Source: a virus. From it: 14,343 nt of DNA. Shown here piece by piece: positions 3 through 14,343 of the stretch. A model generated the notes under the pieces. The model saw only the letters and a program-made list of their open reading frames with translations, made no database searches and had not been told where the DNA came from. Position 1 is the first letter of the stretch. Each line of letters opens with the position of its first letter. The stretch is taken from UHGV virus genome UHGV-1347164. The stretch is one strand, 5' to 3'. A program made the position numbers and the translations under genes.

Positions 3-1271
3 CGCCAGATCGGCGCGACCTTTTACTTTGCCCGTGAAGCCCTGATTGACGCCCTGCTTACCGGACGTAACCAGATTTTCCTTTCTGCCAGTAAGGCACA
101 GGCTCACGTCTTTAAGCAGTACATCATCGACTTCGCCAAAGAAGTCGAGGTGGAGCTGAAAGGTGATCCGATAGTGCTTCCTGACGGGGCCACGCTTTAC
201 TTCCTCGGCACCAATGCCCGCACGGCCCAGAGTTACCACGGCAACCTGTATCTGGATGAATATTTCTGGATCCCGAAATTCCAGGAGCTGCGCAAAGTGG
301 CTTCCGGTATGGCTATTCACAAGAAATGGCGGCAGACCTATTTTTCCACGCCATCCAGCCTGACACACAGTGCTTATCCGTTCTGGTCCGGTGCGCTGTT
401 CAACCGTGGGCGCAACAAAGCCGATAAGGTGGACATCGACCTGTCCCACAGCAATCTGGCCCCCGGCCTGCTGTGCGCAGACGGGCAATACCGCCAGATA
501 GTCACCGTGGAAGATGCGGTGCGCGGCGGCTGTAACCTGTTCGACCTCGACCAGCTACGCATGGAATACAGCCCGGACGAATATCAGAACCTGCTGATGT
601 GCGAGTTCGTGGACGATCTCGCGTCCGTGTTCCCGCTCAGCGAACTGCAGGCGTGCATGGTGGACAGCTGGGAAGTCTGGACCGACTTTCATGCACTGGC
701 CCTGCGCCCGTTTGGCTGGCGCGAGGTGTGGATCGGTTATGACCCGGCAAAAGGTACGCAGAACGGCGACAGCGCCGGATGCGTGGTGGTGGCACCGCCA
801 GCCGTGTCAGGCGGTAAGTTTCGCATTCTTGAGCGTCACCAGTGGCGCGGGATGGACTTCCGCGCCCAGGCTGATGCAATCAAAAAACTGACCGAGCAGT
901 ACAACGTGACCTATATCGGCATCGACTCGACGGGTGTCGGTCACGGGGTTTACGAGAACGTGAAAGCGTTTTTTCCAGCCGTCCGGGAGTTTGTCTACAA
1001 CCCCAACGTTAAAAACGCCCTGGTACTCAAGGCCTACGACATTATCAGCCACCGCCGTCTGGAGTTTGACGCCGGACACACCGACATTGCGCAGTCATTC
1101 ATGGCAATCCGTCGCGCCACCACCGCCAGCGGCAACCGCCCGACCTATGAAGCCAGCCGCAGCGAAGAAGCCAGCCACGCCGATCTGGCCTGGGCAACGA
1201 TGCACGCATTGTTTAACGAACCGCTGCAGGGCGAATCCGCCAATACCAGCAATATTGTGGAGATTTTTTGA
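3..1271 (+). CDS. P: Terminase large (ATPase) subunit, P2 gpP-like; 5-prime partial, open reading frame continues to the window edge
   Basis: Frame of ORF 150..1271 is open with no stop back to position 3 (translation begins RQIGATFYFAREAL...). Large-terminase-like protein immediately upstream of a portal gene, with its TGA overlapping the portal ATG (TGATG at 1269-1273). The product is recognised from family resemblance, not from a search. Confidence 0.8.
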   Translation, partial: RQIGATFYFAREALIDALLTGRNQIFLSASKAQAHVFKQYIIDFAKEVEVELKGDPIVLPDGATLYFLGTNARTAQSYHGNLYLDEYFWIPKFQELRKVASGMAIHKKWRQTYFSTPSSLTHSAYPFWSGALFNRGRNKADKVDIDLSHSNLAPGLLCADGQYRQIVTVEDAVRGGCNLFDLDQLRMEYSPDEYQNLLMCEFVDDLASVFPLSELQACMVDSWEVWTDFHALALRPFGWREVWIGYDPAKGTQNGDSAGCVVVAPPAVSGGKFRILERHQWRGMDFRAQADAIKKLTEQYNVTYIGIDSTGVGHGVYENVKAFFPAVREFVYNPNVKNALVLKAYDIISHRRLEFDAGHTDIAQSFMAIRRATTASGNRPTYEASRSEEASHADLAWATMHALFNEPLQGESANTSNIVEIF

Positions 1272-2317
1272 TGGGAAAGAGTAAGAAGAACCGCGCTGCG
1301 GCGACGAAACAGATCCAGCTTAAAAGTCAAACTACAGCCGAAGCATTCAGCTTCGGCGATCCCGTTCCTGTTCTGGACCGCCGAGAACTGCTGGACTATG
1401 TGGAATGCGTACAGACAGATCGCTGGTATGAGCCGCCAGTAAGCTTTGACGGACTGGCGCGCACCTTCCGCGCCGCCGTGCATCACAGTTCACCAATTGC
1501 GGTGAAATGCAACATTCTGACCAGTACCTACATCCCTCACCCGCTGCTCAGCCAGCAGGCTTTTTCACGTTTTGTGCAGGACTATCTGGTATTTGGTAAC
1601 GCCTACCTGGAGAAACGCACGAACCGCTTCGGTGAAGTTATCGCCCTTGAGCCTGCTCTGGCAAAATACACCCGACGCGGGTTAGACCTGGATACCTACT
1701 GGTTTGTGCAATACGGTATGACAACCCAGCCGTATCAGTTCACGAAAGGCAGCATTTTTCATCTGATGGAACCGGACATCAACCAGGAGATCTACGGCCT
1801 GCCAGGTTATCTTTCTGCCATTCCATCAGCCCTGCTCAACGAGTCCGCCACGCTGTTCCGCCGGAAGTATTATATTAACGGCAGTCATGCAGGCTTCATC
1901 ATGTACATGACCGATGCCGCGCAGAACCAGGAGGATGTGAACAACCTCCGCAATGCAATGAAAAGTGCCAAAGGGCCAGGCAACTTCCGCAACCTGTTTA
2001 TGTACTCTCCTAACGGCAAAAAGGACGGGCTTCAGATTATCCCGTTGTCAGAAGTCGCGGCGAAGGATGAGTTTCTGAATATCAAGAACGTGAGCCGGGA
2101 CGACATGATGGCGGCACACCGTGTGCCGCCGCAAATGATGGGGATAATGCCTAATAATGTTGGGGGCTTTGGTGATGTGGAGAAGGCTAGTCGTGTTTTT
2201 GTCCGCAACGAACTGATGCCCCTGCAGAAACAGCTACAAGAACTTAACTATTGGCTAGGCGAAGAAGCAATACGCTTTGATGCCTACTCCCTAAATTTCA
2301 CAAACGATTCTTTTTGA
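1271..2317 (+). CDS. Q: Portal protein, P2 gpQ-like
   Basis: About 348 aa from the ATG at 1271 (the track starts 3 nt earlier at a TTG). Size and position after the terminase gene match the P2-family P-Q operon. GC-rich like the rest of the backbone. Confidence 0.8.
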   Translation: MGKSKKNRAAATKQIQLKSQTTAEAFSFGDPVPVLDRRELLDYVECVQTDRWYEPPVSFDGLARTFRAAVHHSSPIAVKCNILTSTYIPHPLLSQQAFSRFVQDYLVFGNAYLEKRTNRFGEVIALEPALAKYTRRGLDLDTYWFVQYGMTTQPYQFTKGSIFHLMEPDINQEIYGLPGYLSAIPSALLNESATLFRRKYYINGSHAGFIMYMTDAAQNQEDVNNLRNAMKSAKGPGNFRNLFMYSPNGKKDGLQIIPLSEVAAKDEFLNIKNVSRDDMMAAHRVPPQMMGIMPNNVGGFGDVEKASRVFVRNELMPLQKQLQELNYWLGEEAIRFDAYSLNFTNDSF

Positions 2318-2344: not shown

Positions 2345-4099
2345 TTACTCACGCCCCAATTTCCATACTGAATTATACGATAAAATACTTAGTTCAGCAG
2401 CTCTTGACCTCATATGATCGGGCGTCCATTCTCCTTGATATTTATTTTCAAATTCATCAATAAAAATTTTAACTAGCGCATATTGTGATTGTTTATAAAT
2501 TTCAAGCTTATCCACAACAGACTTATTTCCAGCTTTTTCATTTAATTCTTTTGAAAGTGGTAATAAATTTCCTATCATGCTATATACTTCAGAATCCCCC
2601 ACACTCTGAGGCTGAATATGCTCTAATGTTAATGAATCAGGCATATACTCCCCCGTTTTCATGTGATGTAACTCAAGTCTATTAAAAATGTACTGAATCA
2701 ACCTTTTATTTTTCAACTCTTGATTTGAAAATTTAAGCATAACAAACTTTTCAACAAACATATTAATGTCTGGTTTTCTCTTCACCAACATTTCAAGCAA
2801 AGACTTTATTACTTGTCTATTACTAGCTTTAGTAGAACCTTCATCCACTAAAGCCCTAGCAGCTTTAGCATACGCACTTTCAATACCTGATGGTCGCAAT
2901 GAACAAATAGCATTAAACATAAAATGAAAGCGTTCAATTGACAGCACTGCATTATTCATATCAACAAGTTTTAGCGTTCCTCTTGCTCTTGCCTTAAATA
3001 AAGATAACAAAAATGGTTTATTCTGAGATATGTTAAACAGCCTTAATGCCTGCAAACCTCGATAAACTGGTTTCATTTCCAGTTCAGGAAAATCCTGTTC
3101 TGTAGGCGATGATATTTTCACATATATCTCGGCATCTGAAAGTAGCTCATCAATGAACGCTGAAGCATCAATGTCGCCTTTTTTCCACTTATCCAGAAAA
3201 GCTTTATAAAGAGTGTCACTACTTACATAAGAATATTTTGACACCCACCAATGACGGATAAATGTCTCGATAGAACCGACACCATTACGACTAGCAATTA
3301 TTTGCCTAATTTTATTCCATTTAGTTTTTGCATCATCATCAGGATGTGTGCCATTCAGTTTCTTAAATAATTTGTTTTTTATAAGATCTACATAACTTAA
3401 GTTTAATCCCCTAGCATTCAGAGTTTCAAAGATTGTATAAGCTTCATCTTCATCATTAACTGTAATATAAATCACTTTCAGATACCGTAGAACTTGATCC
3501 CGCACAGCCTTCAACGCTTCCAAGTAGATAAATTTCTCTCTATCTACTCCTAATGTCTGGCAAAGATTATCTTCTGAAAGATACTCAGTTAAATCATTAT
3601 ATGAAGATTGCAAGTTTCTTTCTTCAAGGGACTCCGGCCCTTCATTTCTCTTATCAATATGCTGAATGTTGTTTTGAAAGTATGGCTTAGGAGTTTCATT
3701 AACTAATTTAAAAAAAGGTCTGCCATCGTCATCCATACCAGATATATAATTATTATATATTGATTGAGCTACAGCCAACTCATTTATCAACTTAAATTTA
3801 TCACATAATGCTGATAACAATATAGTAAGAGTCGTAAGACGTTGTTGACCATCTACAATCATCAGCTCAGAGCTAGTTTCCTGCCCGACCAAAACGAGAG
3901 CACCGATGAAATACTCATCATATTGATACTGCCCATCCTCCTGGTAATGAATATTGGAAACTATATCATGCCAAAGTTCACTTACTTGTTCCTTCCCCCA
4001 AGAATATTCTCTTTGGAATCTAGGGACTATATATTTTTTATTTACAGATAACACGTTTGTTAAGGTTCGAGCATTTGCTTGCAGTTCCACTGAGGCCAC
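2345..4099 (-). CDS. GmrSD-family type IV (modification-dependent) restriction endonuclease-like protein: N-terminal DUF262 (ParB-like NTPase/nuclease fold) plus C-terminal DUF1524 (His-Me finger nuclease)
   Basis: N-terminal motifs FQREYSW and DGQQRLTT are the DUF262 hallmarks. C-terminal LEHIQPQS ... GNLLPLSKELNEKAGNKS matches the DUF1524 His-Me finger pattern. 584 aa, visibly AT-rich against the GC-rich phage genes. No early ATG: the start is probably GTG at 4099 or the GTG at 4090, which is preceded by AGGTGG. Confidence 0.7.
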   Translation of the reverse strand: MASVELQANARTLTNVLSVNKKYIVPRFQREYSWGKEQVSELWHDIVSNIHYQEDGQYQYDEYFIGALVLVGQETSSELMIVDGQQRLTTLTILLSALCDKFKLINELAVAQSIYNNYISGMDDDGRPFFKLVNETPKPYFQNNIQHIDKRNEGPESLEERNLQSSYNDLTEYLSEDNLCQTLGVDREKFIYLEALKAVRDQVLRYLKVIYITVNDEDEAYTIFETLNARGLNLSYVDLIKNKLFKKLNGTHPDDDAKTKWNKIRQIIASRNGVGSIETFIRHWWVSKYSYVSSDTLYKAFLDKWKKGDIDASAFIDELLSDAEIYVKISSPTEQDFPELEMKPVYRGLQALRLFNISQNKPFLLSLFKARARGTLKLVDMNNAVLSIERFHFMFNAICSLRPSGIESAYAKAARALVDEGSTKASNRQVIKSLLEMLVKRKPDINMFVEKFVMLKFSNQELKNKRLIQYIFNRLELHHMKTGEYMPDSLTLEHIQPQSVGDSEVYSMIGNLLPLSKELNEKAGNKSVVDKLEIYKQSQYALVKIFIDEFENKYQGEWTPDHMRSRAAELSILSYNSVWKLGRE

Positions 4100-4564: not shown

Positions 4565-4900
4565 ATGAACAATATTCCCCCTATACCACAGTTAGGAATT
4601 TATGTCTCAAAAATCGATCCCACCCTACGTATCACTGTAACCGATGTTGATATTGTTGATGGTGAGGATGATTCTCCTGATGATGAATTGTTTTATTTAG
4701 TCCACTGGATCGAGGGGGAAGATGAAAGTGATATGACAGCAATGGGATTTGAGCTAGACCCAGTAGAGTGGCAGGCTTTCGTTGAATCTGAGCAATTAGT
4801 GTTTGAGCGTGATCCGTACATGGATTCAATCCCCGAAAATTCAAACTTGGCAAAGATTCGGGATTTTCTCATGAAGACTAAACAGAATGATCATTCGTAA
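4565..4900 (+). CDS. Hypothetical, highly acidic small protein (111 aa); function unknown
   Basis: Clean ATG with an AGGAG Shine-Dalgarno 6 nt upstream (aaaAGGAGtttccATG). About 26 Asp/Glu against 7 Lys/Arg by manual count. AT-rich; lies in the accessory region between the cos-like site and the end of gene A. Confidence 0.6.
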   Translation: MNNIPPIPQLGIYVSKIDPTLRITVTDVDIVDGEDDSPDDELFYLVHWIEGEDESDMTAMGFELDPVEWQAFVESEQLVFERDPYMDSIPENSNLAKIRDFLMKTKQNDHS

Positions 4901-5566: not shown

Positions 5567-5586
5567 CACTGTTTATATTTACAGTA
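5567..5586 (-). promoter_or_regulatory. LexA (SOS) box overlapping a candidate promoter for the small-ORF / DinI-like operon
   Basis: Plus strand reads cACTGTttatatttACAGta, i.e. CTGT-N8-ACAG with an AT-rich spacer, a near-consensus match to TACTGTATATATATACAGTA. It lies about 45 bp upstream of the ATG at 5525. A candidate -35 TTTACA and -10 TACTGT on the minus strand overlap the box. Confidence 0.55.
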
Positions 5587-5678
5587 TATAATAATCTTAC
5601 TGATGTAAAACGTTTTTTTACGTTCATCGGCCTGATATGCCTGGTATTATTAAGAGCACGAATTGTTAACCCGCGTAA

Positions 5679-8093
5679 TTAATACAGGTTCCGCCACTTA
5701 TCATCTTCCTTCAGACGCTGGTTCCGATAGAAGATACGCAGGCCTGCTCCTGACGGAATACTGCCGCCGCGAAGGAGCAAATCGACTTCTTTCTCGCTGC
5801 CATCAAATCCCCTGGACTTCAGTTCATAGACGAGCTGCTGTCGCTGATGGTCTGTAATTCGCTGTTTGTAGTCTTTACGCCGTTTCGGTTTCACCTGGCG
5901 TAACCTTGCAGCCAGTTCCCGGCGCTCTTTTTTGCTCATACTGTGCAGGTAATCGTGCAACTCCTTGTCATCCATGCGGGTAATGTCCGTTCTGGTGTCC
6001 CCATCAGCTGATTTATCTTTCTCCTGTTGGTTCAAATTTTCAGCAAGGGGACAGTTATTGCCACGAGTCCAAGGGGCGCAAGCGCCCTGGTCGGCTGCCG
6101 CCTCCTGAACGTCAACGGCTTTACGAACCATTTTCCACTTCACTGCATGAGTGCAGATCTTGCCCTCTGCAATGGGTGACCAGATGCCATAAATACGAAT
6201 GCCGTGATCGCCATAGGCGGTCGGCTCTTCGTTGATTTCATAAGCGGTTCTGATGAGGTGATATTTACGGGGAACCAGTACGCCGCCCTGCTTCATGATG
6301 TAGGTGGCAAAACAACCAGCATCAGCAGCAGCCAGGATTGCATCAAGGCGCGGGTTATCCAGTACCGGCGCACCTGCTTTTTTGTCACCCTGTTGCCTTG
6401 CCGCCTGACCAGCCAGCAATCGCAGTTCACGGTAAGCCTGACGCCCCGGAATGCCAAAGAAGCGGAATTGCTGAACACGATGCAGAGACGCCCAGGCATT
6501 TACGTATTCAGCGTTATCACGCAGGGATTTACCCGTTTCCTTGCTGATCTCGCCAGCCAGACCACGCCCGTCAATGTTCTTACTGATGTATTTCGCGATA
6601 TAGCTTGTTGGCGTACCTTTGCGCGGGTTTATCAGCTCAGACTTAAAGCGTGGTCCCGTGTTATTGCCCAACTCCTCGCGGTCTTCACGGATGGCAAACT
6701 TACGCAGTAATGCAGTGATGGCGCGGCGGTCTTTTTTACGCATGAAACACATGAGATGCCAGTGCACAGTACCGTCATGATGCGGCTCAGCTACCCGCAC
6801 GCCATACCAGCGCAACCCGGCTTTATGCATAGCCTTACGAAATGCAGCAAACATGCCGACCAGATAATCGCTACTTTGTCTTACCGTCGCGTTTGTCCAG
6901 GTCGGGTTTGGTCTGCCGTTATTGAGCGTGGAATGGAAACGCGACGGACAGGTGATAGTGTAGAAAACGGCACAGTCACTGCGCATTTCCGCGATAAGCT
7001 CCAGACCTTTAACACAGGCCATCATCTCATTGCGGCGATGCGCAGGGTTGCTGCTGCTGGCGTTTACCACATCCTCCATGTCCAGCGTGTCGCCGTCTTC
7101 GTTCACCAGTTCATGAGAACGGAAAAACTCCAGCGACTTACGGCGCTGCTCACGTTTATGCAACACGGCTTCATAGCTGACATAGGGAGATGCTTTTTTG
7201 CTGACAAGGCAGACAGCACGCAACTGCTCTTCCCGCCATTCGCAACGCATCTTCCATAATTTCCGATACCACCAGTCGGCACACAACATACGCGCCAGCG
7301 AACCCGGGATGAGTTCATAGGGCACTGGTTTGCGGCGGTTTCTTTTCCGACGAAGTTTCTCAAACGCAGGCGGGATAACATCCAGACGCAGGGTTTCCGC
7401 TGCCACCTTTTCCCATGTCTTGCGGATTTCTTCTGGCTTAACGTCATCGGTGGCATACAAATCACCACAAGCGGCCTCAAGACACATGCTCATATGCGCT
7501 GCTACCAGGGTGGACAGGCGTTTTACCTGATCCTGACTCATTTCAGGCAGGATCAGCAGGCCCTCAAGCCCTTGATGGCTTGCCATAAAACGGAAAGAAG
7601 CGGATAGCTGACTGTCGCGTACATACTCCAGTCGCTCCAGACATGGCTTAATCGTCTCACGCAAATAGCGGGAATAAGCCTTTGGCCTGCCCAGGCTGCT
7701 GAAGTATTCGATACGTTGCATCAGCGGCTTGCTGATGTGGGTAGGCTGGGCGCTGACGTCCGACAGAATGACCATGTCCGGGTCAAAACGCTGCTGCTCA
7801 TGCGCCAGCTTTGCCCGGCTAATGAGCTTATCCTGCTCCATTTCGCGCTGGACAGGATCACGGGATTCATTAAAGAAATAACGTTCCCAGACCTGATCAC
7901 TCAGTGCCTCGCGGCGCTGCTGTTCCTGCTCGTTATCGGCAGCGTACAGAGTGATCATGTTTGAAAGTGCAGACTCCGGCGCAACTTCCTCCGGTTCCAG
8001 ATAAGGGTTAATGGCCTTTTTCGGGCCGTTCCATGAAAATGCTGCGGCAGCCTCGTTAAAGCCGCTAGAGTTGCTCATATCGTCATTACTCAT
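5679..8093 (-). CDS. A: Replication initiation endonuclease, P2 gpA-like rolling-circle (HUH) initiator
   Basis: 804 aa, ATG start at 8093-8091. Contains an HUH-type motif (TVHWHLMCF) and a tyrosine motif (YIAKYISK). Size and position downstream of the early operon match P2/186 gene A. GC-rich. Confidence 0.85.
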
Positions 8094-8947
8094 ACACGCA
8101 CCTCGTACACAGCAGAACTATCCACGCCACGCGAAGGATCAAATCCCATCCAGCAGCGCGGCCCGGAAACAGCAATGATTTCTGTTGCAGATTTACTCTC
8201 GCCAGCTGACACGCCGATGCTGCGTTTTGCCTTGATGTAGTGGTGAGTGAAATTGCGATACAGCGAACGGATCAGGGATGTGTCACTGTTAGAAACAATG
8301 ACCGGATGTCCTTCTGATGACCGATGTTCAAGAACAGATGCCAGGTGATACTGGTCATCTTCAGTGAAGCCGTCAGTGTGATAGCCGGAAAACGTACCGT
8401 CATACGGCGGATCGCAATACACCACATCCCCCGCCTTCAACATCGCCAGCGTTTCATCAAAGCTGGCGCAGATAAACGTTGCTCGCTGGGCCTTTTCTGC
8501 AAATGCGCGAATTTCTTTTTCAGGGAAATACGGATTTTTATAATTACCGTAGGGAATGTTGAAATGCCCGCTCTTGTTATAGCGACATAAACCACGATAA
8601 CCGTGACGATTGAGATACAGGAAATATATCGCCTTCATGAAATCAGTAATTTCAGTTGAGTAATTAAACTCCTGCCTTATGTTGTAATAAGCCAGCTCAC
8701 TGTTTGCTTCCTCAAATAAAACTCTGGCACGAGATATAAACGCTTCGCAATCAGCGGCAATCTTTTTATAGAGGTTGATTAAATCAGGATTAATATCCGC
8801 AACCAGATAGCTGGGGTAATCCGTCTCCATCATCACAGCACAGGAACCCGCGAAAGGTTCAACCAGTCGCGGGCCAGCAGGAAGGTGTTTTTTCAGTTCG
8901 GACATAATGGCGGTTTTATTTCCCGCCCATTTCAGGATGGTGCTCAT
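8090..8947 (-). CDS. dam: DNA adenine methyltransferase (Dam-like, N6-adenine MTase)
   Basis: From the internal ATG the protein begins [11 protein letters not shown], the typical Dam N-terminus, and contains the DPPY catalytic motif. The track ORF starts upstream at a TTG. Its TGA overlaps the ATG of gene A, and its ATG overlaps the stop of the upstream TraR-like gene. Confidence 0.8.
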
Positions 8948-9171
8948 ACAGCACCTCCGTTGTAATGTTTGCCTTTCAGCTCTGCGATCTCCTGGCAGGT
9001 AATGCAAAGCTGCACTCCCGGAATGGCGCGTCGTCTTGCTGGCGGAATTGGCGCTTCACATTCAATGCAAAGCACGCGTGACACGCCCGGCGTTCTGGCA
9101 CGGGCAGCACGGATATGACGCTGGCGTTCTTCTTCAACGCGCTGCTGTACGAGATCCATTGCATCAGCCAT
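8944..9171 (-). CDS. TraR/DksA-family C4 zinc-finger protein
   Basis: 75 aa with CIEC-x17-CITC, a C-x2-C ... C-x2-C zinc finger typical of TraR/DksA-like proteins found in P2-family early operons. ATG start at 9171-9169; stop overlaps the Dam start. Confidence 0.7.
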   Translation of the reverse strand: MADAMDLVQQRVEEERQRHIRAARARTPGVSRVLCIECEAPIPPARRRAIPGVQLCITCQEIAELKGKHYNGGAV

Positions 9172-9813: not shown

Positions 9814-9977
9814 TTGTTCCCCCGTTTATTCGTTGATAGTTCCGCCAGCAATTCATCTTGTGAACGGCACGGATGCCAGCGTTTTCCATCCTCACCCATG
9901 ATCCAGCCGTGACCGTAGTGCATTGCCGGGCTTTGTTTTACCAGCAGCGATGCAAATGATGGTTCTTTCGTCAGCAT
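9777..9977 (-). CDS. Hypothetical small protein (about 66 aa) directly downstream of cII, in the position of 186 fil
   Basis: Internal ATG at 9977-9975 lies 8 nt after the cII stop with GGTG just upstream (TGAGGTGcttATG). The track's longer version starts at a GTG inside cII. Function not recognisable from sequence. Confidence 0.45.
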   Translation of the reverse strand: MLTKEPSFASLLVKQSPAMHYGHGWIMGEDGKRWHPCRSQDELLAELSTNKRGNKWLLKALRRLFH

Positions 9978-9984
9978 AAGCACC

Positions 9985-10494
9985 TCACAGCAAACCGAAT
10001 GAAGCACCGAGGCCAGTCACGGTATCAACTGCACTCGCCATCGCAGGATTAGCCTGTAAACGGGCCTGCAATGAAACAGCAGCCAGCGCCATCAGTCGTG
10101 TTACAGAGTTAATGCTGCTGATAGCATCACGACGACCTGCACTGGTTTTTACATCGCCAGATACCGCACCTGCAGCAACACGCCCGATCTCTGCGGTTGC
10201 ACTCATGACGTAATGCGGCAGTTTCTCTTTTGCCACCTCATTAATCGGTACGCATGGCAGGCAGTGAATCTGAGCCAGAAAACCATCTACCAGCGTTGAA
10301 TCTTCAGTCAGATCGGTAAGCAGCCAGATTTCTGGTGCGGTTAATAAATGAGGCTGAGCTGGGTTCAGCTTGTTCCGCAGAATCTGCACATTCATGCCTG
10401 CACGTTCTGCCAGTTGCACCAAGTTGTGGCGCAACGCGAATGTACGACAGGCTTCGTCAAAATGTGGATGTTTGGAAACTTGGTAATCAAACAT
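9985..10494 (-). CDS. cII: CII-type transcriptional activator of lysogeny establishment (phage 186 CII-like)
   Basis: From the ATG at 10494 the protein begins [15 protein letters not shown]... and is 169 aa. This closely resembles phage 186 CII as I recall it, which has the same length. The track ORF starts 3 codons upstream at a TTG. Confidence 0.7.
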
Positions 10495-10557
10495 GGTTTT
10501 CAACTCCGAACTTATCGCAAAATCGAACTCAGTGTCTTAATGCGAAATAGACATCTA

Positions 10558-10761
10558 TTAAGCAGACAAAGCATCAACAGTCAGAGCAGCCAGGTTAATC
10601 ATTACCTTTTCACGTTTTTTGTCTTTACGAAGACGATGACGAGGTAGTCGGCCATCAGCCAACATGTCGTTAATCGTATCAATAGAAAGGCCTGTCAGTT
10701 CGCTATAACGTTCGATCGTGACATGGGGTGTATTCAGAGTAATTGAAATGTTAGGTGTCAT
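10558..10761 (-). CDS. apl: Apl/Cox-like excisionase and switch regulator (Xis/AlpA-type HTH)
   Basis: First gene of the leftward early operon, immediately upstream of cII. Sequence YSELTGLSIDTINDMLADGRLP resembles an AlpA/Xis-type helix-turn-helix. Start taken as the ATG at 10761 (MTPNISITL), which has AAGGAA upstream; the track's longer form begins at a TTG, so the true start is uncertain. Confidence 0.55.
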   Translation of the reverse strand: MTPNISITLNTPHVTIERYSELTGLSIDTINDMLADGRLPRHRLRKDKKREKVMINLAALTVDALSA

Positions 10762-10850
10762 AAGGCAACATTCCTTATCAGTATGGCTTGTGGCGAGCCG
10801 TAGTTTGTCGTGATTAGTTGTGAAGGCTCCAAAAGAACACTTCTGGTTCA

Positions 10851-10879
10851 ACTTTAAGATCGCTTTTGGAATCTGTCAA
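10851..10879 (-). promoter_or_regulatory. Candidate early lytic promoter (pR-like) in the apl-cI switch region
   Basis: Minus strand has a consensus -35 TTGACA (10879..10874), a 17-nt spacer and -10 TAAAGT (10856..10851), oriented toward apl-cII. The placement is by eye only; operators and the opposing pL were not resolved. Confidence 0.3.
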
Positions 10880-10905
10880 CGGTTTTAGATTTCTTTGGAG
10901 GACTT

Positions 10906-11481
10906 ATGGATTTCAGCAGCGGTGGTAAGAAAGTCATTGAACGTCTAGTTGAGGCGTATGGGTTCTCTACTAGACAGGCTCTTTGCGATCACTTGGGAGT
11001 ATCCAAGAGCACTATGGCTACACGTTACATGCGAGACATCTTCCCTGCAGATTGGGTTTTGCAATGTGCTATCGAAACTGGTTATTCACTAGAATGGTTG
11101 TCATTCGGTATAGGTGATAAAAATATTTCAAATACAAATGCGCAAATTTTAGTACCAAAGAAAAAATTAATTTCTGGAACACTAATTGAAGATGGGGCAT
11201 ATGTTTTTGATAAAGCATTCTTACCTGAAAAAATATGTAACCCATTCATCATTGAAGATCTGGATAACGAATATATATGTAGTTTTGAATATGATGATAT
11301 AAGCGATGGATTGTGGCTAATAGGTATCGACGAAAAAATTTCGGTCCGAACCCTGACCCGCTTACCTAATAACAGATTATATGTTGAAGGAGGAAATCGT
11401 GGTTTTGAGTGTTCTAGAGACGAAATACAGATTGTTGGAATTGTGTGGTGTTGCATACTAAGAAGAGCAGAAAAATTTTAA
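10906..11481 (+). CDS. cI: Immunity repressor CI (186 CI-like, N-terminal HTH; no obvious S24 Ser-Lys autocleavage motif)
   Basis: 191 aa, ATG at 10906 with GGAG 5 nt upstream. Divergent from apl-cII across a 144-bp switch region. N-terminal HTH-like segment (TRQALCDHLGVSKSTMATRYM); C-terminal part ends in a LexA/CI-like beta-rich tail (NRLYVEGGNRGFECSRDEIQIVGIV) without a GDSM-type serine motif. The C-terminal half is AT-rich. Confidence 0.65.
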   Translation: MDFSSGGKKVIERLVEAYGFSTRQALCDHLGVSKSTMATRYMRDIFPADWVLQCAIETGYSLEWLSFGIGDKNISNTNAQILVPKKKLISGTLIEDGAYVFDKAFLPEKICNPFIIEDLDNEYICSFEYDDISDGLWLIGIDEKISVRTLTRLPNNRLYVEGGNRGFECSRDEIQIVGIVWCCILRRAEKF

Positions 11482-11512
11482 CACACAATATATTAAATAA
11501 CTGGAGTTCTAA

Positions 11513-12844
11513 ATGCCTATTGAATATACGTTTGATTATCGTGACGAGTTCCTTCGTAAGCCTATTGCTGAAAAATTAATATCGCTACTTGACTCTGATA
11601 TTAACTTATCTCCACTGGTTATAGATGGCGGATGGGGCACGGGGAAAACAGAGTTTTGCAAAAAAGTTGCAAATCTAATTGAAAGCAATAATCAAAAACA
11701 TAAAGTAGTTTACATTGATGCTTTCGCTGAAGATCATAATGATGCCCCAATTTTGACGTTAATGGCTGGTGTTGCTGCACTTCTTCCCGAAAATGAACGA
11801 AAGGAGTTAATAAATAAAACACTTCCAGCAATACGTTTTGGTTTGAAAACCATTTTCAAAGCAGGCACTGGATGGGTGTTAAAACAAAATGCAGATGACA
11901 TTGTTGATGGCTTCGAAGATGCTATCAAAGAAGCAACTTCGAGTGCAATTGACAGTACAATTGAAACATTATTAGACGATCATATAGAGGCGCAGAAAAA
12001 CATCGAGACACTGAGAAGTACAATATCGCATCTTACAGAGGAATATAAAATAACGATTTTTATAGACGAACTGGACAGATGTAAACCTACATTCGCTCTT
12101 TCAATCATAGAAAATATCAAACACATTTTTGAAATAAAAAATTTAAATTTTGTATTGGTTGCAAAGACTCAACAACTCAAGGCATCAATAAGGCATCTGT
12201 ATGGTTTATCCATAAATGCAGATCAGTATTTAGACAAATTCATTAAGTTTACATTTGTATTGCCAGATACATATAAACCAGATAACTATACACCTGCATA
12301 CGCATCTGTTGCTTTATGGGGAATATTAAAAAATGATTCTCAAAAACTGCAAGAAGTAGACGAATCATGCGGGCATATCATAAAAACGATAATACAAAGG
12401 GCTAAGTTGTCTTTACGTGAAGTAGAAACATTATCACGCCACTTTGAAATATATCAGGTGCTATCTCAATCTGGAATTGGTCCAGGGAAAGTATTTGGTT
12501 ATTCATTATATCGAATGTTAGGGGTAATATTATACTCTCTAAATCGCCCTTTGGCATTAAGTTATCTAGATAATTCTGTGGATGCAGAAAGCATTATCAA
12601 AACCTTAGGCTTTGAATATTTAAGTTACGATGAAGATATTTATAGGATAGATAATACTGAATGTGCTATTTATGGGATCGTACTGGACTATATTGATACA
12701 ACATCTCCATTCTTTATAAAAGATGATGAAACCAGAAGAAAATGGACTGAACGTGCTACCTATGATTTCTTTCAAAACGGCTTAGACGCAGTGCCTCCCC
12801 GAACACTTGTTTCGTCCACCATTGAAGCTTTAATGTTGAACTAA
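11513..12844 (+). CDS. KAP-family P-loop NTPase (candidate prophage-encoded defence or lysogenic-conversion gene)
   Basis: 443 aa with Walker A GGWGTGKT and the KAP-type Walker B IFIDELDRC, separated by a moderately hydrophobic segment (APILTLMAGVAALLP...). GGAG 6 nt upstream of the ATG. Strongly AT-rich; starts 31 bp after the cI stop and ends 80 bp before int. Confidence 0.8.
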   Translation: MPIEYTFDYRDEFLRKPIAEKLISLLDSDINLSPLVIDGGWGTGKTEFCKKVANLIESNNQKHKVVYIDAFAEDHNDAPILTLMAGVAALLPENERKELINKTLPAIRFGLKTIFKAGTGWVLKQNADDIVDGFEDAIKEATSSAIDSTIETLLDDHIEAQKNIETLRSTISHLTEEYKITIFIDELDRCKPTFALSIIENIKHIFEIKNLNFVLVAKTQQLKASIRHLYGLSINADQYLDKFIKFTFVLPDTYKPDNYTPAYASVALWGILKNDSQKLQEVDESCGHIIKTIIQRAKLSLREVETLSRHFEIYQVLSQSGIGPGKVFGYSLYRMLGVILYSLNRPLALSYLDNSVDAESIIKTLGFEYLSYDEDIYRIDNTECAIYGIVLDYIDTTSPFFIKDDETRRKWTERATYDFFQNGLDAVPPRTLVSSTIEALMLN

Positions 12845-12871
12845 AGATGTATTATTGACTGATTTCATACA

Positions 12872-12900
12872 TTGACACTGGTTATACATACAGTAAAAAT
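12872..12900 (+). promoter_or_regulatory. Candidate promoter upstream of int (TTGACA, about 17 nt, AAAAAT/TAAAAA)
   Basis: Consensus -35 TTGACA at 12872-12877 and an A/T-rich -10-like hexamer at about 12894-12900, roughly 25 nt upstream of the int ATG. Unverified pattern match. Confidence 0.25.
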
Positions 12901-12924
12901 GTTCTCCACTGGAGGGCATTTTTT

Positions 12925-13956
12925 ATGGCAGTACGAAAACTCACCACAGGAAAATGGCTTTGCGAATGTTACCCCGCCGGACGTAGTGGGCGTCGTGTAC
13001 GTAAACAATTCGCCACCAAAGGCGAAGCACTGGCTTTTGAGCGTCACACGATGGAAGAAACCGAAGCAAAGCCCTGGCTGGGTGAATCCGTGGATCGTCG
13101 AACACTGAAAGACGTGGTTGAGCTATGGTTCAAACTACATGGTAAATCTCTGACAGCTGGGCAGCATGTCTATGACAAATTGCTGTTGATGGTTGACGCT
13201 CTGGGCAATCCTCTTGCAACCGATCTCACCTCTAAAATGTTTGCCCACTATCGAGATAAACGCCTGACAGGTGAGATCTACTTCAGCGAGAAATGGAAGA
13301 AAGGAGCAAGCCCGGTCACCATTAACCTGGAGCAAAGCTATCTAAGTAGTGTTTTTAGCGAACTATCCCGCCTGGGCGAATGGTCGTATCCAAACCCACT
13401 GGAGAACATGCGAAAATTCACCATCGCAGAAAAAGAGATGGCATGGCTTACCCATGAGCAGATTGTTGAACTGCTGGATGATTGCAAACGTCAGGACCCA
13501 ATTCTGGCACTGGTAGTCAAGATATGCTTAAGCACAGGCGCACGCTGGCGAGAAGCAATAAACCTTACCCGATCACAGGTGACCAAATACCGAATTACCT
13601 TTGTAAGAACGAAGGGGAAGAAAAACAGAAGCATCCCTATCAGTAAAGAGCTTTATGAAGAGATCATGGCGCTTGATGGGTTCAATTTCTTCACAGACTG
13701 CTATTTTCAATTTTTATCCGTGATGGAAAAAACGTCTATCGTGCTCCCTCGCGGTCAACTGACACACGTTCTGCGCCATACGTTTGCGGCGCACTTCATG
13801 ATGTCGGGTGGAAATATCCTGGCCTTACAAAAAATTCTCGGGCATCACGATATAAAAATGACTATGCGTTACGCACATCTGGCACCGGATCACCTTGAAA
13901 CTGCATTACGGTTTAATCCGCTGGCAACACTACCAACATCAATAGCAAGTTTTTGA
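12925..13956 (+). CDS. int: Tyrosine site-specific integrase (P2/186 Int-like)
   Basis: 343 aa. The C-terminal catalytic region LTHVLRHTFAAHFMMSGGNILALQKILGHHDIKMTMRYAHLAPDH contains the R...H-x-x-R...Y pattern of tyrosine recombinases. GGAGGG Shine-Dalgarno upstream of the ATG. Position at the end of the lysogeny operon matches P2/186. Confidence 0.85.
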   Translation: MAVRKLTTGKWLCECYPAGRSGRRVRKQFATKGEALAFERHTMEETEAKPWLGESVDRRTLKDVVELWFKLHGKSLTAGQHVYDKLLLMVDALGNPLATDLTSKMFAHYRDKRLTGEIYFSEKWKKGASPVTINLEQSYLSSVFSELSRLGEWSYPNPLENMRKFTIAEKEMAWLTHEQIVELLDDCKRQDPILALVVKICLSTGARWREAINLTRSQVTKYRITFVRTKGKKNRSIPISKELYEEIMALDGFNFFTDCYFQFLSVMEKTSIVLPRGQLTHVLRHTFAAHFMMSGGNILALQKILGHHDIKMTMRYAHLAPDHLETALRFNPLATLPTSIASF

Positions 13957-14014
13957 AAATGCGTATTTTGCCCTGTTGAGCTAATATTCCTTTTTTTCAC
14001 ATGGAGCACTATCA

Positions 14015-14284
14015 ATGAATAAGTTTCAGCATCAGGGAGCGGAATTGCGCAACAGAGCAAAAGAATTGGCTTTATCCGTACTTAAAACTCACCCAGATGC
14101 CCAAAAAAACGGCAACGGCGTTAAGCAAGCTGAGGTATTTCGTCTAAGCGGCCTCGATTGGGGAGAAAAACGGAAAGCAACAAGTTCGAACCAACAATAT
14201 TGGGTTGTTGCACTATTGCGTGAACTAGAAGAGGAAGGGTTAGTCGAACAGATTGAAGATAGAGGCCCCTGGCGTCTAAGGTAA
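14015..14284 (+). CDS. Hypothetical protein (89 aa) beyond int; either flanking host DNA or another element
   Basis: Clean ATG with GGAG about 9 nt upstream. No recognisable motif; the C-terminal part (QYWVVALLRELEEEGLVEQIEDRGPW) could be winged-helix-like. Lies after the expected att junction. Confidence 0.4.
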   Translation: MNKFQHQGAELRNRAKELALSVLKTHPDAQKNGNGVKQAEVFRLSGLDWGEKRKATSSNQQYWVVALLRELEEEGLVEQIEDRGPWRLR

Positions 14285-14343
14285 AACAAGTGGCGACAAA
14301 GTGGCGGCAGCGGTTGGCATTACCCCGTAATAACCACCACTGA

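Follow-up and report, generated by a model that had tools for sequence, protein, structure and literature searches.

The C-terminal domain (CTD) of CI, the immunity repressor of phage 186, forms dimers and a 14-subunit wheel of seven dimers, and the operators of this repressor lie at pR and at the flanking FL and FR sites. Induction of 186 proceeds through derepression of the LexA-controlled promoter p95, after which the Tum protein inactivates CI (PMC7708051). In Fels-2 and PSP3, tum is split by a stop codon, the upstream PSP3 gene being the antirepressor (Lemire et al., PMC3121763); the same paper treats Fels-2 as closely analogous to phage 186 with its antirepressor-based regulation. The cI gene examined here is found in virus genome UHGV-1347164, on a stretch of 14,343 nucleotides that was analysed as a whole and is referred to below as the window. 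It comprises one half, with the early and immunity genes, of a P2/186-like (Peduoviridae) Escherichia coli prophage integrated beside rcdA; 13 complete E. coli genomes match positions 9900 to 14343 at 99.5% identity. With a probability of roughly 0.85, the cI product is a 186-type repressor that is induced through a LexA-controlled antirepressor, and its CTD has been swapped together with an adjacent gene for a KAP-family NTPase as one cassette of low GC content.

Judged by its sequence, the cI product is an immunity repressor of the 186/Fels-2 type. Its N-terminal domain (NTD), which the earlier note had described as a helix-turn-helix (HTH), indeed matches Pfam family PF07022 (Phage_CI_repr) over residues 10–71 (E = 7.1e-29), and the C-terminal part matches PF16452 (Phage_CI_C) over residues 83–180 (E = 1.5e-23). 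The best solved relative is 186 CI (PDB 2FJR, E = 4e-27), with 34% identity over the full length (39% in the NTD and 30% in the CTD); given this level of identity, the immunity specificity presumably differs from that of 186. An AlphaFold model of the protein reached a pLDDT of 85.6, and in Foldseek the modelled CTD aligned with the 186 CI CTD (2fkd_A) at a target TM-score of 0.90 and a root-mean-square deviation of 1.4 Å. BLASTP comparison detected no similarity to lambda CI or LexA, and the match to P2 C was marginal (E = 0.015) and confined to the HTH. Family alignments were built from 27 full-length proteins and from 33 CTDs, 186 CI included. In the former, the HTH core (…AYGF.TRQALCDHLGVSKST.ATRYMRD.FPA.W…) is nearly invariant across genera. 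The gene order is likewise that of 186 (int, cI, divergent apl–cII, and farther on A, the LexA box and tum), with cI divergent from apl–cII and upstream of int; however, cI abuts int in 186, whereas a 1.4-kb KAP gene is interposed here.

The earlier note had found neither a GDSM-type serine nor a Ser-Lys dyad in the CTD. Alignment with members of the family, 186 CI included, bears this out, as no conserved dyad emerges. No GDSM, G-[DN]-S-M or G-x-S-M motif occurs in the CTD, and the sole G-x-S-[ML] match in the protein is GYSL at residues 59–62, inside the NTD. Moreover, no Ala-Gly or Cys-Gly dipeptide is present in the entire 191-residue protein, and a Pfam scan of CI gave no Peptidase_S24 match. 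Across the family alignments, no Ser or Lys column of the CTD is conserved above 63–70%, the invariant residues being G135, W137 and P154; because catalytic residues are expected to be invariant, a Ser-Lys dyad is excluded at the level of the family. Lacking both this dyad and an Ala-Gly site, CI is most likely not subject to direct induction by RecA. Self-cleavage machinery is equally absent from 186 CI.

On one point the earlier note calls for correction, namely that a missing autocleavage motif does not make the CTD unrelated to S24 domains. Foldseek searches with the CTD returned 186 CI first, followed exclusively by structures of LexA, the lambda CI C-domain and UmuD' (E values of 7e-6 to ~1e-2, target TM-score 0.5–0.63, 9–13% identity, probability 1.0). 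When the CTD profile was compared with PDB sequences, the LexA C-fragment was the sole match other than CI, at an E value of 0.2 that lies below significance, and an hhalign comparison of the CTD family with three aligned S24 sequences (LexA, UmuD and lambda CI) produced nothing interpretable (probability 2%). Only the fold, plus one sub-threshold profile match, connects the CTD with S24. The window CI thus has in common with LexA, lambda CI and UmuD the C-terminal β-fold and the order of domains, a DNA-binding NTD followed by an oligomerising CTD, but it differs from them in having no Ser-Lys dyad, G-[DN]-S-M motif, Ala-Gly site, Pfam S24 domain or BLASTP similarity. Going by the modelled structure, the CTD is most plausibly a degenerate S24-like fold that serves oligomerisation, possibly in a wheel like that of 186, with its protease machinery lost or never present.

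Gene A stands between the immunity region and an SOS operon. That the operon beyond gene A is LexA-controlled, as had been claimed, is upheld by a box with 17 of 20 consensus positions, overlapping a p95-like promoter on the minus strand (-35 TTTACA at 5609..5604, a 17-nt spacer and -10 TACTGT at 5586..5581). These hexamers were assigned by eye, with the annotated p95 of 186 as a guide; a generic promoter scan called no promoter at this site. The -10 element constitutes the first half of the LexA box TACTGTAAATATAAACAGTG, and in 186 the SOS -10 overlaps the LexA box in the same way. A single exact CTGT-N8-ACAG in 14 kb, where an estimated ~0.2–0.4 would be expected, is only weakly significant alone, and the box convinces because of its position and conservation. 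It is identical in Fels-2, boxes occur at the equivalent place in 186 and PSP3, and 76 out of a set of 80 related loci also have a box there; this set was collected by scanning IMG/VR with TumA (TumA at least 98% identical; CI detected in 70).

The two open reading frames (ORFs) of this operon, of 62 and 77 residues, correspond to the single 146-residue Tum protein of 186 and reproduce the split arrangement of Fels-2 and PSP3. A reading of two overlapping ORFs in the tum region (96 and 101 residues) as a frameshift or pseudogene was rejected, since RefSeq and phage records give a conserved 62/77-residue layout. The upstream, TumA-like protein is 97% identical to STM2728 of Fels-2 and takes the position of PSP3 tumA, whose annotation records a resemblance to the 5' end of 186 tum and a role in prophage induction by ultraviolet light. 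The downstream product, TumB, is 41% identical to residues 71–145 of 186 Tum. Across Escherichia, Salmonella, Klebsiella, Enterobacter, Kosakonia, Pectobacterium and Lonsdalea, TumA is 82–100% identical, in contrast to its presumed target CI, which is highly variable outside the HTH core. Position, architecture and the literature together point to an antirepressor role for TumA.

The proposed mechanism runs as follows. The HTH of the CI NTD would bind operators at the divergent pR/pL switch. DNA damage would lead to cleavage of LexA and to derepression of the p95-like promoter (~5581–5609), from which the split tum operon would be expressed. Binding of the 62-residue TumA-like protein to CI would next keep the repressor off DNA, with the DinI-like TumB as a modulator of the response. 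Induction in the manner of 186 rather than of lambda had been suggested in the earlier note, and a 186-type CI without cleavage features, in company with a LexA box and a TumA-like/TumB layout as in Fels-2 and PSP3, argues for that view. As for the part of CI that is targeted, the NTD is favoured, because TumA is constant while the CTDs descend to 25–32% identity and the HTH core is near-invariant. A target in the NTD would also agree with the known effect of Tum, which is to block DNA binding.

The second part of the reading concerns the 3' half of cI. The AT-richness that this half was said to share with the KAP gene is readily measured: GC content is 0.451 in the NTD (0.408 at third codon positions), 0.328 in the CTD (0.225 at third positions) and 0.349 in KAP, against 0.47–0.53 in the flanking genes. 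In Fisher tests, NTD and CTD differ (p = 0.004), and CTD and KAP do not (p = 0.49). The compositional analysis that had been proposed was run as a two-breakpoint likelihood segmentation, which delimits a shared low-GC block at 11057–12904 (GC 0.47/0.34/0.47, log-likelihood gain 37). Joint acquisition of the two pieces, at which the earlier note had only hinted, is borne out by comparison with two sibling prophages (L001 and L002) that occupy this attachment site in E. coli. Here, blastn gives 93–94% identity through cII, apl and the cI NTD; homology ends at 11081 (L001) or 11117 (L002), at the end of the NTD, and none is detectable at the DNA level over the CTD and KAP. Identity then returns at 96–97% from 12845/12865, 1–21 bases after the KAP stop codon, and covers int. 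The encoded CI proteins are correspondingly 83–87% identical to that of the window in the NTD and 46% (L001) or 32% (L002) in the CTD, and the position of KAP is taken by a 63-residue ORF in L001 and by a different, 483-residue KAP in L002. Prophages of the Enterobacter cloacae complex carry the same CI (88% amino acid identity), the 443-residue KAP and int in collinear order, with ~79% DNA identity throughout; therefore, the linkage between this CTD and this KAP is old. The CI CTD and KAP form one low-GC cassette, spanning ~11082/11118 to 12844/12864. It would have been exchanged between related prophages by homologous recombination, with the NTD-coding sequence and the sequence upstream of int as anchors.

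The same joint recurs in related prophages. When 71 loci (the window and the 70 IMG/VR loci with a detected CI) were clustered at thresholds of 90% for the NTD and 80% for the CTD, 13 NTD clusters and 17 CTD clusters were obtained. Each CTD cluster comes with one cI–int spacing (0, ~400, 1050, 1070, 1090, 1440, 1630, 1780, 1880, 2280 or 2620 bp), and several NTD clusters are combined with more than one CTD and cargo type (N4 with C4/C5, N5 with C5/C15, N6 with C6/C8 and N12 with C13/C16). Pairwise breakpoints fall at CI codons 59–85 (at codon 166 where the NTD of CI is duplicated) and ~60–80 bp upstream of int. All cargos have a GC content of 0.30–0.37 and lie on the cI strand; the types named by PADLOC include PDC-S20 (KAP), PD-Lambda-1, a P2 Old homologue and PDC-M11A. 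With one cargo length per CTD type and NTDs that reassort, the cI–int junction is a cargo site, and the CTD travels with the cargo.

The simplest explanation of this linkage is that recombination is anchored in the nearest conserved sequences and that the divergent CTD hitchhikes. A CTD–cargo pairing that goes beyond hitchhiking, or a TumA that acts as a universal antirepressor aimed at the HTH, is unlikely; the latter, if true, would allow cross-induction among polylysogens. Two forms that such a pairing might take are unsupported: that the cargo defence protein (here KAP) is tied to its cognate CTD, for example by sensing the oligomeric state of the repressor, and that diversification of the CTD has been selected against mixed, poisoned wheels among co-resident prophages with near-identical HTHs.

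Other forms of the cI–int junction and of cI itself were seen among related prophages. PSP3 (L099, 2872–3210) encodes a DUF2511 protein at the junction, so that it combines a split tumA/tumB operon with cargo between cI and int, as in the window. Fels-2, by contrast, has no cargo; its CI (STM2738, 210 residues, 37% identical to that of the window) abuts a different integrase. A small Cys-rich protein of 63–67 residues with an apparent signal peptide is encoded at the junction in L001 (2094–2285) and in the cargo of L020 and L021, in L020 beside a second KAP homologue that is 54% identical to the window KAP. In some CIs of ~290–313 residues, the HTH NTD is duplicated in tandem before the usual CTD (L003 1437–2378, L063, L067 and L086; e.g., Klebsiella phage 4LV2017). 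In L092, an IMG/VR locus, cI occupies two ORFs, with 84 N-terminal and 95 C-terminal residues; the repressor gene has probably suffered a frameshift there, while the rest of the prophage is similar.

With respect to the cargo of the window, KAP matches PADLOC PDC-S20 over its full length (residues 4–442 against positions 5–448 of the 450-position model, E = 1.3e-173), with weaker PADLOC matches to PifA and QatA, and is thus a candidate anti-phage defence gene. No terminator-like site was found on the plus strand between cI and int. In the lysogen, KAP probably shares a transcript with cI and int, and is hence probably expressed.

Several results weigh against the proposed account. A search for repeats around pR that might serve as CI operators gave short repeats at chance level only (TTTGGA/TCCAAA). 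No BLASTP similarity links TumA to the N-terminal half of 186 Tum or to PSP3 TumA, and the hhalign match of the TumA family to 186 Tum residues 4–42, ungapped and in register, is weak (E = 3e-4, probability 39%). A covariation test for the CI domain targeted by TumA yielded no discrimination, as TumA is essentially invariant (at least 98% identity) over the 80 loci, although the CIs that go with it show 60–97% identity in the NTD and 25–95% in the CTD; specific TumA–CI pairing is therefore not demonstrable by covariation in this sample, and the case for the NTD as target is an indirect one, drawn from the much stronger conservation of its core relative to the CTD. Several CTD clusters have only one or two members, which makes the one-to-one rule between CTD and cargo a statement about a limited sample. 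Finally, the nearly invariant R148 stands opposite LexA K156 in the profile alignment at E = 0.2 and is Lys in some relatives; the equivalence of the two residues, drawn from this insignificant hidden Markov model alignment, is suggestive only.

The results on TumA also bear on the possibility that the prophage is not SOS-inducible through CI, both small LexA-controlled ORFs being only DinI-like SOS modulators and the 62-residue ORF having another function. TumA has no Pfam family, besides its lack of BLASTP similarity to the two described proteins and of covariation with CI type. Yet position, size and operon structure match both PSP3 tumA/tumB and Fels-2, the upstream PSP3 gene has been assigned antirepressor activity (PMC3121763), and the hhalign match, weak as it is, is in register. 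TumA is moreover conserved across the Enterobacterales, as is the HTH core that it plausibly binds, and a non-inducible prophage seems quite improbable.

Low GC content in the CTD could alternatively have arisen in place, in a domain that evolves fast under relaxed or altered selection, rather than through joint acquisition with KAP. CTDs are hypervariable in the family (mean column identity 46%), and cI genes free of cargo could carry AT-rich CTDs too. Such drift in place fits poorly with an identity that falls from 93–94% to undetectable within ~40 bp at the domain boundary and recovers after KAP, with a composition indistinguishable from that of KAP, with the same CTD and KAP found intact as a pair in Enterobacter, and with NTD types that reassort with CTD and cargo types; it is accordingly given very little weight. 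Least credible is a cryptic self-cleaving CI, for example with another nucleophile or with Arg148 as base, that is induced by RecA as in lambda. A LexA-like fold and a basic residue aligned with LexA K156 speak for it. Against it, the protein lacks any Ala-Gly or Cys-Gly dipeptide, the position at which the strand register would place the Ser holds another residue, none of the Ser or Lys columns in the 33 CTDs is conserved above 70%, Pfam gives no S24 match, the homologous 186 CI is inactivated by Tum and not by cleavage (PMC7708051), and a complete LexA-controlled tum operon is maintained.

The features of the window are collected in Table 1, in a gene order compiled from ORFs, Pfam matches and the RefSeq annotation of strain E2.

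Table 1. Features of the 14,343-nucleotide window, in order of position.
Feature	Position	Strand	Remarks
Terminase	150-1271	+	
Portal	1268-2317	+	
GmrSD-like gene	2345-4099	-	Pfam GmrSD_N + GmrSD_C; PADLOC HEC-06, 3.8e-90; GC 0.345
ORF, 111 aa, acidic	4565-4900	+	Between GmrSD-like gene and tum operon
TumB, DinI-like, 77 aa	5093-5326	-	Pfam DinI 1.2e-22
TumA-like ORF, 62 aa	5337-5525	-	First gene after LexA box
LexA box TACTGTAAATATAAACAGTG	5586..5567	-	Exact CTGT-N8-ACAG match; 17/20 vs consensus
Gene A, replication endonuclease	5679-8093	-	ORF; RefSeq name in strain E2
dam methylase	8090-9007	-	Longest ORF; RefSeq 858 bp in strain E2
TraR/DksA-like gene	8944-9171	-	
cII (CP76 family), lysogeny-establishment activator	9985-10494	-	Pfam Phage_CP76 6e-42
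apl/cox-like gene, 67 aa	10558-10761	-	Divergent from cI; RefSeq coding-sequence equivalent in strain E2; 186 apl position
Candidate pR-like early lytic promoter	10851-10879	-	TTGACA, 17-nt spacer, TAAAGT; consensus scan 10/12
cI	10906-11481	+	ORF; 191-aa product
CI NTD (residues 1-71)	10906-11118	+	HTH; conserved backbone; GC 0.45
CI CTD (residues 72-191)	11119-11481	+	Predicted oligomerisation domain, LexA-like fold without catalytic dyad; left part of cassette
KAP-family P-loop NTPase, 443 aa	11513-12844	+	Pfam KAP_NTPase 2.4e-50; Walker A motif GTGKT (residues 42-46); right part of cassette
Tyrosine integrase (int)	12925-13956	+	Pfam Int_N + Phage_integrase; conserved backbone right of cassette

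The pR-like candidate may direct transcription of apl–cII, its position being analogous to that of 186 pR, and CI operators would be expected around it. A longer, 97-residue ORF at the apl/cox-like locus had no Pfam match. A promoter-like consensus match on the plus strand (12872–12900; TTGACA, a 17-nt spacer and AAAAAT), located in the conserved segment between the cassette and int, could drive int independently of the cargo insert. At the other end of the window, the low-GC GmrSD-like gene occupies the known P2 gpA–gpQ defence hotspot, which holds DUF6236 and PIN genes in strain E2 and a TIGR02391 protein in strain JNE151685. The neighbouring 111-residue ORF had no match in Pfam or PADLOC; it is conserved in JNE151685, where it is annotated as hypothetical. 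The near-identical prophage of strain E2 (L006) is a remnant in which a truncated terminase is fused beside a late-control D fragment (13859–15079); most of its structural genes are deleted, and the immunity region, KAP and the tum operon are retained.

Low-GC, defence-like cargo at a fixed position of the backbone also characterises the defence hotspots of P2-like prophages (Rousset et al., 2022, PMC9122126; NAR 2026, PMC13586616). In the window, by contrast, one half of a core regulatory gene, the half that encodes the CI CTD, belongs to the variable unit; no statement to this effect was found in the sections consulted.

The mechanism of induction is already known from phage 186, and the window is a further member of that family. 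What it adds is a sharply defined cassette of CI CTD and KAP, and a recurrent recombination joint between NTD and CTD at the cI–int cargo site. As in 186, the prophage should be SOS-inducible through a LexA-controlled antirepressor, and its induction should hence be reversible and titratable by the level of CI. The pattern of a constant NTD and a constant antirepressor suggests that TumA targets the conserved NTD. The variable unit at the cI–int cargo site of 186-like prophages begins inside cI, at the linker between NTD and CTD, and the joint is useful for delimiting defence cassettes and for choosing candidates from them, such as the PDC-S20 KAP NTPase, which is probably expressed in lysogens. 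The turnover of defence genes in these prophages thus brings the master repressor new oligomerisation domains as well, whereas its DNA-binding domain and the antirepressor do not change.

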